Of a stretch of 64,000 nucleotides of DNA, positions 35,920 through 36,591 are shown in pieces. Position 1 is the first letter of the stretch. Every line of letters starts with the position of its first letter. Origin of the DNA: a virus. Its lineage: Duplodnaviria > Heunggongvirae > Uroviricota > Caudoviricetes. Location of the stretch: the IMG/VR virus record IMGVR_UViG_3300046786_000370, positions 15,927 through 79,926 of that record; one strand, written 5' to 3'. The notes beneath the pieces are model-generated. The model saw only the letters and a list, made by a program, of their open reading frames with translations. It had not been told where the DNA came from and ran no database searches. The position numbers and the translations under genes were made by a program.

Positions 35920-36591
35920 TTAACTCCAAAGTAGGTCAAAGTTTCCTTGTAGCACTTTTTTTGTACTGGATACTTTGTCGGTTATGTGATCTTGTACCCT
36001 ATCATCTTGAAAGCGGTACGTTCTTATTTTATCTCCTCGCATCCCGGAACCAACTTGTTCTCGTCTATTTGAGGCTATACTGTTATTATACTCTGCGCTG
36101 ACTATGTTGTCAACTTTATTGGTTATTGTAGACATTGCTTCGTTATAACTGTTTTCTCTACTGCGGCATTGTGCTGTAGCAACTATACCAGAAGGTATGT
36201 GTGTTATGCGGCAACTGTTTTGATGTTTATTGCGATGTTGTCCGCCAGCACCAGTTCCGCTGTACCATTCTATTTTAAGATCCCGTTCAGCGATAGTTGT
36301 TTTAACTATTTCGGGATCTACAATGGCCACGGTTACTGTGCTGGTATGTACTCTGCCTTTACGTTCAGTGGGAGGAACACGTTGTATTCTATGTCCGCCA
36401 CTTTCGTTATACAAGCCTGATAAATCAGCACCCTCGACTAATATATGTACTTCGCCAAGATACTCACCTATTAGGCGGGTAGTTCAGCCAAGTTTACCAG
36501 CGAATTTTGTATATGCTTGAGCAAGGTCTTTGACAAACAACTTGCTGTCTTCGCCGCCTTCTGCGGCTCTAATTTCTATAACTCGTTTCAT
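35920..36591 (-). CDS. class-I peptide chain release factor homolog (RF1-type PPT motif, GGQ; lacks domain 1) with one in-frame TGA
   Basis: Hand translation: MKRVIEIRAAEGGEDSKLFVKDLAQAYTKFAGKLG-TGA-TTRLIGE...[22 protein letters not shown]...GTGAGGQHRNKHQNSCRITHIPSGIV...RTYRFQDDRVQDH; a single frame from 36591 to 35920 broken only by TGA at 36486..36484. Confidence 0.7.

Follow-up and report, generated by a model that had tools for sequence, protein, structure and literature searches.

A conserved in-frame UGA, probably read through, in RF1-type release factor genes of phages and mobile elements

How is a viral release factor made when its gene carries a stop codon inside its own reading frame? 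The question is raised by a locus in a stretch of 64,000 nucleotides (nt) from a virus of the class Caudoviricetes (IMG/VR record IMGVR_UViG_3300046786_000370, positions 15,927 to 79,926), referred to here as the window. On its minus strand (36591..35920), 35 codons, a TGA and a further 187 codons form one frame, encoding a homolog of the bacterial class-I release factor RF1 without the N-terminal domain 1. In our view a functional RF1-type factor without domain 1 is probably made from this gene through programmed readthrough of the conserved UGA. Here we describe the conservation of the stop codon and the identity of the predicted protein, and weigh the ways in which the stop might be passed.

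A conserved stop codon inside a release factor gene

The gene starts with an ATG at 36591, which overlaps the TGA stop of an upstream open reading frame (ORF; 36588..36830) in the sequence ATGA, and ends with a TAA (35922..35920, minus strand). The presence of its own ATG and AAGGA motif, together with the overlap with the preceding stop, indicates that the gene has its own translation start inside a minus-strand operon. Codons 1-35 translate as MKRVIEIRAAEGGEDSKLFVKDLAQAYTKFAGKLG, and the full-length product has 223 residues if codon 36 is read through. In the window, the first in-frame start codon after the TGA is a TTG at codon 60. The coordinates, strand, frame and translation with a single TGA were re-read from the sequence and are as given in the initial annotation of this locus. 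The parts of the gene, and a tRNA gene that may act on it, are listed below.

36598..36602, minus strand: Shine-Dalgarno-like AAGGA, 6 nt before the ATG (read from the sequence)
36487..36591, minus strand: codons 1-35, where RF1 domain 2 begins, with the AEGGED tip, which touches the first stop-codon base (Pfam PCRF match; ratio of nonsynonymous to synonymous substitution rates, dN/dS)
36484..36486, minus strand: in-frame TGA, codon 36, the putative recoding site (conservation; alignment to the Trp of RF1)
36454..36483, minus strand: codons 37-46, with low synonymous variation, a candidate readthrough context in which the base after the TGA is A (synonymous-site ratio)
35920..36483, minus strand: codons 37-223 and the TAA, covering the rest of domain 2, domain 3 and domain 4 (Pfam; RF1 alignment)
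44856..44929, minus strand: phage tRNA-Trp(CCA), a candidate UGA decoder in a presumed role (ARAGORN; stem features)

Protein searches place the product in a large metagenomic family of ∼222 residues, in which about one third of the matches are only 164-187 residues long and start just past position 36. These short proteins led us to suspect a shared stop, and the underlying DNA was then fetched. In a first scan, TGA is present at codon 36 in 80/80 of the best viral loci. It is likewise found in all of 70 unique DNA versions, in which the adjoining codons vary freely and synonymous changes are common (e.g. Tyr27 is TAC in 38 and TAT in 32). A second scan starting from distant members added contigs of up to 524 kb, the family then including members with only ∼45% identity, and the 81 distinct variants drawn from about 150 viral loci (contigs) all contain a single in-frame TGA, always 27 residues past the AEGG motif. 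Full-length database entries show a 'W' at this position, which is an artefact of gene calling: the DNA of P0020 (NCBI) and P0012 (JGI) has TGA.

Both sides of the stop evolve as protein-coding sequence. Among the 70 unique relatives, codons 1-35 have a dN/dS of 0.12 and the stretch from codon 37 to the end one of 0.11, with a median dS >1, indicating that the synonymous sites have been turned over and that the stop and both halves have nevertheless been retained. The two halves lie in the same frame in every examined member of clade A, to which the window protein belongs, and no in-frame start after the stop is conserved in the family (the predicted starts vary between codons 40, 48, 52 and 60). 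The context AAACTTGGCTGAACTACC recurs in three SRA assemblies that are independent of one another and have 96% identity to the window, which excludes the sequencing error that the initial annotation had allowed for. The TGA is thus a real feature, conserved family-wide to an extent far beyond what chance would give, and purifying selection acts on the two halves in a single frame.

The initial annotation had described the protein as RF1/RF2 domains 2-4 with a GGQ motif, lacking domain 1, with a PPT tripeptide of the RF1 type (PxT) and with the TGA at a Trp position of RF1, and profile and structure comparisons bear out each of these assignments. The 35-residue N-terminal peptide alone matches the Pfam family PCRF (E=6.8e-7), and the C-terminal part matches both PCRF (2.8e-11) and RF-1 (2e-20). 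The Pfam bit scores of the protein are 79.8 for PCRF and 72.7 for RF-1. For model searches, the two parts were joined with a Trp placed at the stop codon. The joined protein scores 204 bits with the NCBIfam hidden Markov model (HMM) for RF1, 118 with that for RF2 and 42 with that for PrfH, and gives no match to ArfB. The RF1 score stays below the NCBIfam equivalog cutoff (400 bits), as does the PrfH score (cutoff 167 bits), which covers domain 3 alone. NCBIfam has no model for either of the two clades of release factors without domain 1 described here. The match to the RF1 model spans positions 107-334 of 347 and the ORF starts 3 residues before position 107, so that domain 1 (∼100 residues, contacting RF3 and the L11 stalk) is absent.

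The best-matching solved structures are RF1 chains (149 bits, compared with 87 bits for RF2), and in the alignment to T. maritima and E. coli RF1 the TGA codon falls on a Trp. The catalytic GGQ comprises residues 116-118, and the tripeptide PPT (residues 73-75; PxT, not the SPF of RF2) lies in a region that aligns to RVQRVP(V/A)TE..GRIHTS of the solved RF1 chains. The codon-reading elements Q70, P73-P74-T75, H82 and T83 include the RF1 third-base readers (Gln181 and Thr194 in Thermus numbering), and GGQ, PPT, Q70, H82 and T83 are invariant across the family. The AlphaFold model of an 83% identical homolog has a predicted local distance difference test (pLDDT) score of 85.6, and superimposes on domains 2-4 of ribosome-bound RF1 with a template modelling (TM) score of 0.79.

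Three other identities were considered and rejected: RF2 (the tripeptide is PPT rather than SPF, and the score is 118 against 204 bits), PrfH (42 bits, and phosphatase genes flank the gene instead of an RtcB neighbor) and ArfB (which is not among the matches of the window protein, in which PCRF domains 2 and 4 are present). No second release factor homolog was found in the window. The product is thus predicted to be an RF1-type class-I release factor without domain 1, which should read UAA and UAG.

Passing the UGA

In the proposed mechanism, production of the full-length protein of 223 residues would require a ribosome to read codon 36 (UGA) as a sense codon, most likely with insertion of Trp by the near-cognate tRNA-Trp(CCA) of the host or of the phage itself. 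Whenever host RF2 wins at the UGA, only the 35-residue peptide would be released. The level of the phage factor would then be set by competition between RF2 and tRNA-Trp, and would rise with inefficient UGA termination, scarce RF2 or plentiful phage tRNA-Trp. Since the gate codon is specific for RF2 in most lineages, full-length synthesis should increase with limiting RF2 or abundant tRNA-Trp, conditions that would be plausible during takeover of the cell by a phage with 34 tRNAs and 61% TAA stops. Of the three options raised in the initial annotation, this one (programmed readthrough or regulated expression) is favored by the evidence.

Several features of the site are consistent with recoding. 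Synonymous variation (observed/expected, normalized per amino acid) drops to 0.38-0.47 at codons 35-46, the deepest dip in the gene, and a dip right after a stop typically accompanies a recoding signal. Of the 81 variants, 55 have an A directly after the TGA, 20 have a G and 6 have a C, while none has a T. The window sequence around the stop (CTT GGC TGA A) has no slippery codon ahead of the stop, and frame 0 is kept after it; ribosome hopping was rejected for lack of a matching landing codon. With frame 0 on both sides, no slippery or landing codon and no conserved restart, readthrough is the simplest mechanism.

Bacterial tRNA-Trp(CCA) naturally misreads UGA, more so when an A follows, as in the synthesis of the Q-beta A1 protein; in 1981 Engelberg-Kulka reportedly described such misreading of UGA by tRNA-Trp, favored by the following A. 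The tRNA-Trp encoded in the window has U11:A24, A59 and a U27-C43 mismatch, which shortens the anticodon stem to 4 bp; these three features are reported to enable E. coli tRNA-Trp to read UGA (PMC13092985). In E. coli, tRNA-Trp with 27:43 unpaired increases UGA readthrough ∼2.5-fold in vivo, and the triple mutant C27A/G24A/G59A decodes UGA in vitro (PMC13092985). Of the tRNA-Trp genes located near family members, 5/14 have the 27:43 mismatch, an enrichment over the 70/598 among other tRNAs (Fisher p=0.02).

Elsewhere in the window, TGA is an ordinary stop. In a simple non-overlapping set of 113 ORFs, 69 (61%) end in TAA, 35 in TGA and 9 in TAG, and the TGA-ending ORFs include the gene that overlaps the start of the release factor. 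Pairs of same-frame ORFs split by one stop show no enrichment of TGA in the window, and no gene on the coding strand other than the release factor is credibly split by a TGA, in line with the initial annotation, which saw no other gene in the window that needs TGA as a sense codon. The same annotation had found no tRNA with a UCA anticodon, and this too holds: ARAGORN predicts 34 tRNAs for the window itself and a total of 1024 (612 unique) when related loci are included, and the anticodons UCA, CUA and UUA occur in none of the 34 and none of the 1024.

Bacterial carriers, a sister clade and rival explanations

Release factors with a PPTE motif and without domain 1 form several clades in metagenomes, and are also encoded in bacterial genomes. 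Among cultured Alphaproteobacteria, the same TGA-gated gene is present in Gemmobacter caeni DSM 21823 (L157, within an array of 18 tRNAs), Thalassospira xianhensis, Jiella sp. LLJ827 and Rhodovibrio sodomensis, and a TGA-gated copy is located on plasmid pBSY19_1 of Bosea sp. RAC05 (L252, 4001-4687), where the PLSDB gene table gives an antisense hypothetical protein and does not enter the release factor. The bacterial copies are surrounded mostly by genes without a Pfam match, along with genes for NADAR and AbiEii domains, which fits mobile DNA but says little more. Altered tripeptides occur in some of these copies (PLG in Gemmobacter, PAN in Bosea).

In a sister clade, ∼40% identical to the window protein, the stop is instead part of a +1 frameshift cassette of the prfB type (prfB being the RF2 gene), and homology resumes in the +1 frame. 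The site lies one codon after the Trp-36 position in 12 of the 15 viral loci of this clade. The viral cassette is CTT TGA N, in most cases with a G-rich Shine-Dalgarno-like run just upstream (AGGGG, GGGGG), and in locus L246 the stop is CTT TAG C. Cassettes are present in the viral loci L239 and L241-L251, as well as in L232 (Achromobacter anxifer), L206, L170 and L162. The copy in Achromobacter anxifer LMG 26857 has CGG GGC TAT CTT TGA C, farther downstream, and L162, a Hahella contig from a metagenome-assembled genome, carries CTT TAG C five codons past codon 36, which is TGG there. Further variants include an in-frame TGA at a third position (L171 and L237) and two frame-0 TGAs in the viral sister-clade loci L238 and L240, whose phages may use TGA as a sense codon. 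A few distant members apparently lack the stop: L167 has Tyr at this position at the DNA level, and P0124-like proteins (Ala or Leu at the site) are taken to have no stop from their protein sequence. The Trp-36 TGA, CUU UGA or CUU UAG frameshift and third-position TGA forms seen across clades make a stop-codon gate early in domain 2 a recurrent trait of the superfamily.

These gate forms (UGA readthrough at Trp-36, a +1 frameshift at CUU UGA or CUU UAG, and UGA elsewhere) suggest a wider reading, which we put forward tentatively and rate as possible though doubtful. Phages, tRNA-array elements and plasmids would carry a distinct, undescribed class of PPTE factors derived from RF1, without domain 1 and almost always gated by a stop early in domain 2. 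The element would thereby gauge the termination capacity of its host and supply an RF3-independent terminator on demand, or else a PPT factor with broadened specificity would regulate itself.

A number of points weigh against readthrough as set out above. Around the stop, only GGY-UGA-V is conserved in the wider family. No conserved RNA structure 3' of the UGA was detected by RNAalifold over several spans (it gave just a 3-bp CGC/GCG helix with no covariation), and the gene region has no Rfam match. Half of the tRNA-Trp genes near family members (7/14) have a normal stem and the 27:43 mismatch is also frequent in Lys tRNAs, so that the 4-bp anticodon stem was rejected as a universal partner, and the mismatch is a lead for this phage rather than a family rule. 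Only 64 kb were seen of a genome that is probably much larger. The gating of an RF1-type factor by an RF2-specific codon is not self-regulation of the prfB kind, which makes its physiological logic uncertain. Finally, the bypass by readthrough and the insertion of Trp are steps that we infer, as are the sensing of RF2 and the help of the phage tRNA-Trp.

The main rival to readthrough gated by host RF2 is true autoregulation, in which the PPT factor itself recognizes UGA (being RF2-like or omnipotent), as in prfB. Both clades without domain 1 gate on a stop codon, the frameshift clade carries RF2's own cassette, and the middle Pro is common to PPT and the SPF of RF2. Gates of either UGA or UAG in one family with an unchanged PPT (L246 and L162) would also suit an omnipotent factor. 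However, the specificity residues are all of the RF1 type (Pro first, Thr third, and Gln where RF2 has Val) and HMM scores favor RF1 by ∼85 bits. By the tripeptide rule that Ito et al. reportedly set out in 2000, PxT excludes G at the second base, which counts against a factor that reads UGA. We regard autoregulation as unlikely.

It is improbable, in our estimate, that the locus makes two separate products, a 35-residue peptide and a reinitiated C-terminal fragment, with no readthrough. Gene callers do routinely give a 35-aa ORF and a 164-187-aa ORF, but there is no conserved restart codon, and initiation at the TTG of codon 60 would remove the first strands of domain 2. Furthermore, the shared frame of the two halves in clade A argues against independent products, and the sister clade joins its parts by a classical frameshift cassette rather than a restart signal.

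The third option of the initial annotation, a UGA-to-Trp recoding system, finds no support in the window. In its widest form it would be a phage-wide late switch to genetic code 4 (TGA = Trp), with other recoded genes and a suppressor tRNA outside the window. TGA-recoded Jade phages carrying RF1 are known (bioRxiv 10.1101/2021.08.26.457843), the part of the genome seen is limited to 64 kb, and L238 and L240 have two in-frame TGAs. Yet TGA terminates 35/113 window ORFs and splits no other coding-strand gene, no stop-reading tRNA is present among the 1024, the same gated gene occurs in Alphaproteobacteria with the standard code, and the Jade RF1 gene is itself written in the standard code. We consider such a switch highly improbable.

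The weakest explanations have next to no likelihood. A nonsense pseudogene (the first option of the initial annotation, as a recent one) or a sequencing or assembly error might be suspected from a lone in-frame stop, which resembles a fresh nonsense mutation, and from annotation pipelines that skip or split the gene, but both are refuted by the conservation data (TGA in 81/81 variants, dS >1 and dN/dS ∼0.1 on both sides, and agreement of independent read sets). Selenocysteine, for which UGA is the codon, would need machinery that was not found: no tRNA-Sec in the window or related loci, no hairpin after the UGA and no Rfam match to a selenocysteine insertion sequence (SECIS), at a position that is Trp rather than Cys in RF1.

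Known systems and genomic surroundings

The closest parallel is prfB, likewise a class-I release factor gene with an early in-frame UGA that has to be bypassed, the yield being tied to the efficiency with which the stop is read. The Shine-Dalgarno-like sequence and CUU UGA of prfB recur as the same cassette in the sister clade without domain 1. The window gene differs from prfB in that its bypass would stay in frame 0 without a CUU slippery codon, its site is in domain 2 rather than domain 1, and its product is of RF1 type, so that UGA is not its cognate codon. Across 12,753 genomes, a survey from 2025 reports no compelling case of programmed frameshifting in prfA and no instance of TAG in the prfB motif (PMC12421855). 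The class-I release factor of Mimivirus and Megavirus needs a frameshift as well as a readthrough, and is the only recoded gene of that genome (PMC3521657). It is likewise a viral release factor dependent on recoding of an internal stop, but it is of the eRF1 type, from a eukaryotic virus and with two events, whereas the present case concerns a bacterial RF1 homolog in phages with a single event.

Domain 1 is also absent from PrfH (RF-H), a release factor homolog paired with RtcB2 that keeps the GGQ domain (PMC1586002). The window protein shares both features with PrfH but belongs to another family by HMM and gene context, and keeps the RF1-type codon-reading motifs. A laboratory counterpart exists for the domain architecture, namely truncated E. 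coli RF1 consisting of the same domains 2-4; the window protein is natural, and has a stop-codon gate in addition. Mora et al. reportedly found in 2003, in Mol Microbiol 50:1467, that E. coli RF1 minus the N-terminal domain kept its codon specificity and supported growth but did not respond to RF3. Synthesis of the Q-beta A1 protein relies on a leaky UGA, at which the ordinary tRNA-Trp inserts Trp at a level of a few percent. Readthrough there extends a complete coat protein, while here it would be needed for any functional protein and the Trp would be a conserved structural residue.

In the Jade phages, RF1 is part of a 'code-change module' and contains no internal stops, alongside a UCA suppressor tRNA, a tryptophanyl-tRNA synthetase (TrpRS) and many TGA-containing genes (bioRxiv 10.1101/2021.08.26.457843). 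These phages likewise link a phage RF1 with UGA = Trp, but the other features of the module are not matched here. RF-1 genes in mycobacterial tRNA arrays have been noted without comment on recoding (PMC5966550), and huge phages encode RF1 and RF2 (PMC7162821).

We found no description of a conserved stop-codon gate in RF1-type genes in the literature searched. Synthesis of a release factor gated by a stop codon is textbook translational feedback, described only for RF2 and the eRF1-like protein of giant viruses. Here, a whole RF1-type family on phages and mobile elements would depend on such a gate, with readthrough as the bypass in one clade and frameshifting in a second, and if the wider reading given above is true, this would be the first case of stop-codon-gated expression in the RF1 family. 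It would provide a natural setting in which to study the benefit that a cell or virus derives from tying RF1-type activity to the efficiency of UGA termination, and an example of a release factor without domain 1, presumably RF3-independent, selected in nature. Annotation pipelines misannotate such genes as 35-aa and 164-aa ORFs, as an antisense hypothetical protein, or with a 'W' from table-4 calls. The culturable carriers Gemmobacter caeni DSM 21823, Thalassospira xianhensis, Bosea sp. RAC05 and Achromobacter anxifer LMG 26857 make the question testable.

In the window, the release factor gene is flanked by two genes for phosphate-ester hydrolysis:

36796..37287, minus strand: Cys-based dual-specificity phosphatase-like gene (HCVAGVCRS motif), flanking the release factor
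35319..35918, minus strand: calcineurin-like metallophosphoesterase gene, flanking the release factor

This phosphatase/phosphoesterase flanking recurs in roughly one third to less than half of the related viral loci, and the two genes were therefore rejected as conserved operon partners. PHROGs and Pfam searches of the large neighboring ORFs return generic functions only. Nucleotide searches for close cultured-phage relatives matched tRNAs only, and protein matches in cultured phages are <60% identical, the annotated ones being full-length release factor genes of the bacterial type.

All 34 tRNA genes of the window are on the minus strand and have an encoded CCA end, and are located in 21838..22672, 33742..34992 and 41306..49219. 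Several are duplicated (Pro-tgg, Val-tac, Ala-tgc, Asp-gtc, Glu-ttc and Thr-tgt twice each, Met-cat three times). The tRNA-Ile(tat) at 46495..46586 (minus strand; anticodon UAU) is 92 nt long with an unusually long extra arm, and similar tRNA genes of 90-92 nt are present in L026, L035, L040, L049, L051, L055 and L062. Among the related loci, ARAGORN also predicts tRNA-like genes whose anticodon loops are irregular (the 'anticodons' being tttc, tacc, tt and cc) in L021 (203-277), L048 (2481-2581), L008 (1352-1426), L045 and L054 (minus strand), which could be frameshift-suppressor-like or mispredictions.

Two further sets of minus-strand genes in the window are of separate interest. In the tRNA-gene region, 16024..17043, 31805..33235 and 38706..39071 encode two radical-SAM proteins and a protein resembling S-adenosylmethionine decarboxylase. 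At 1298..2572, a 424-residue ORF is ∼24% identical to sodium/proton:dicarboxylate symporters (GltP/DctA-type), an unusual auxiliary gene for a phage.

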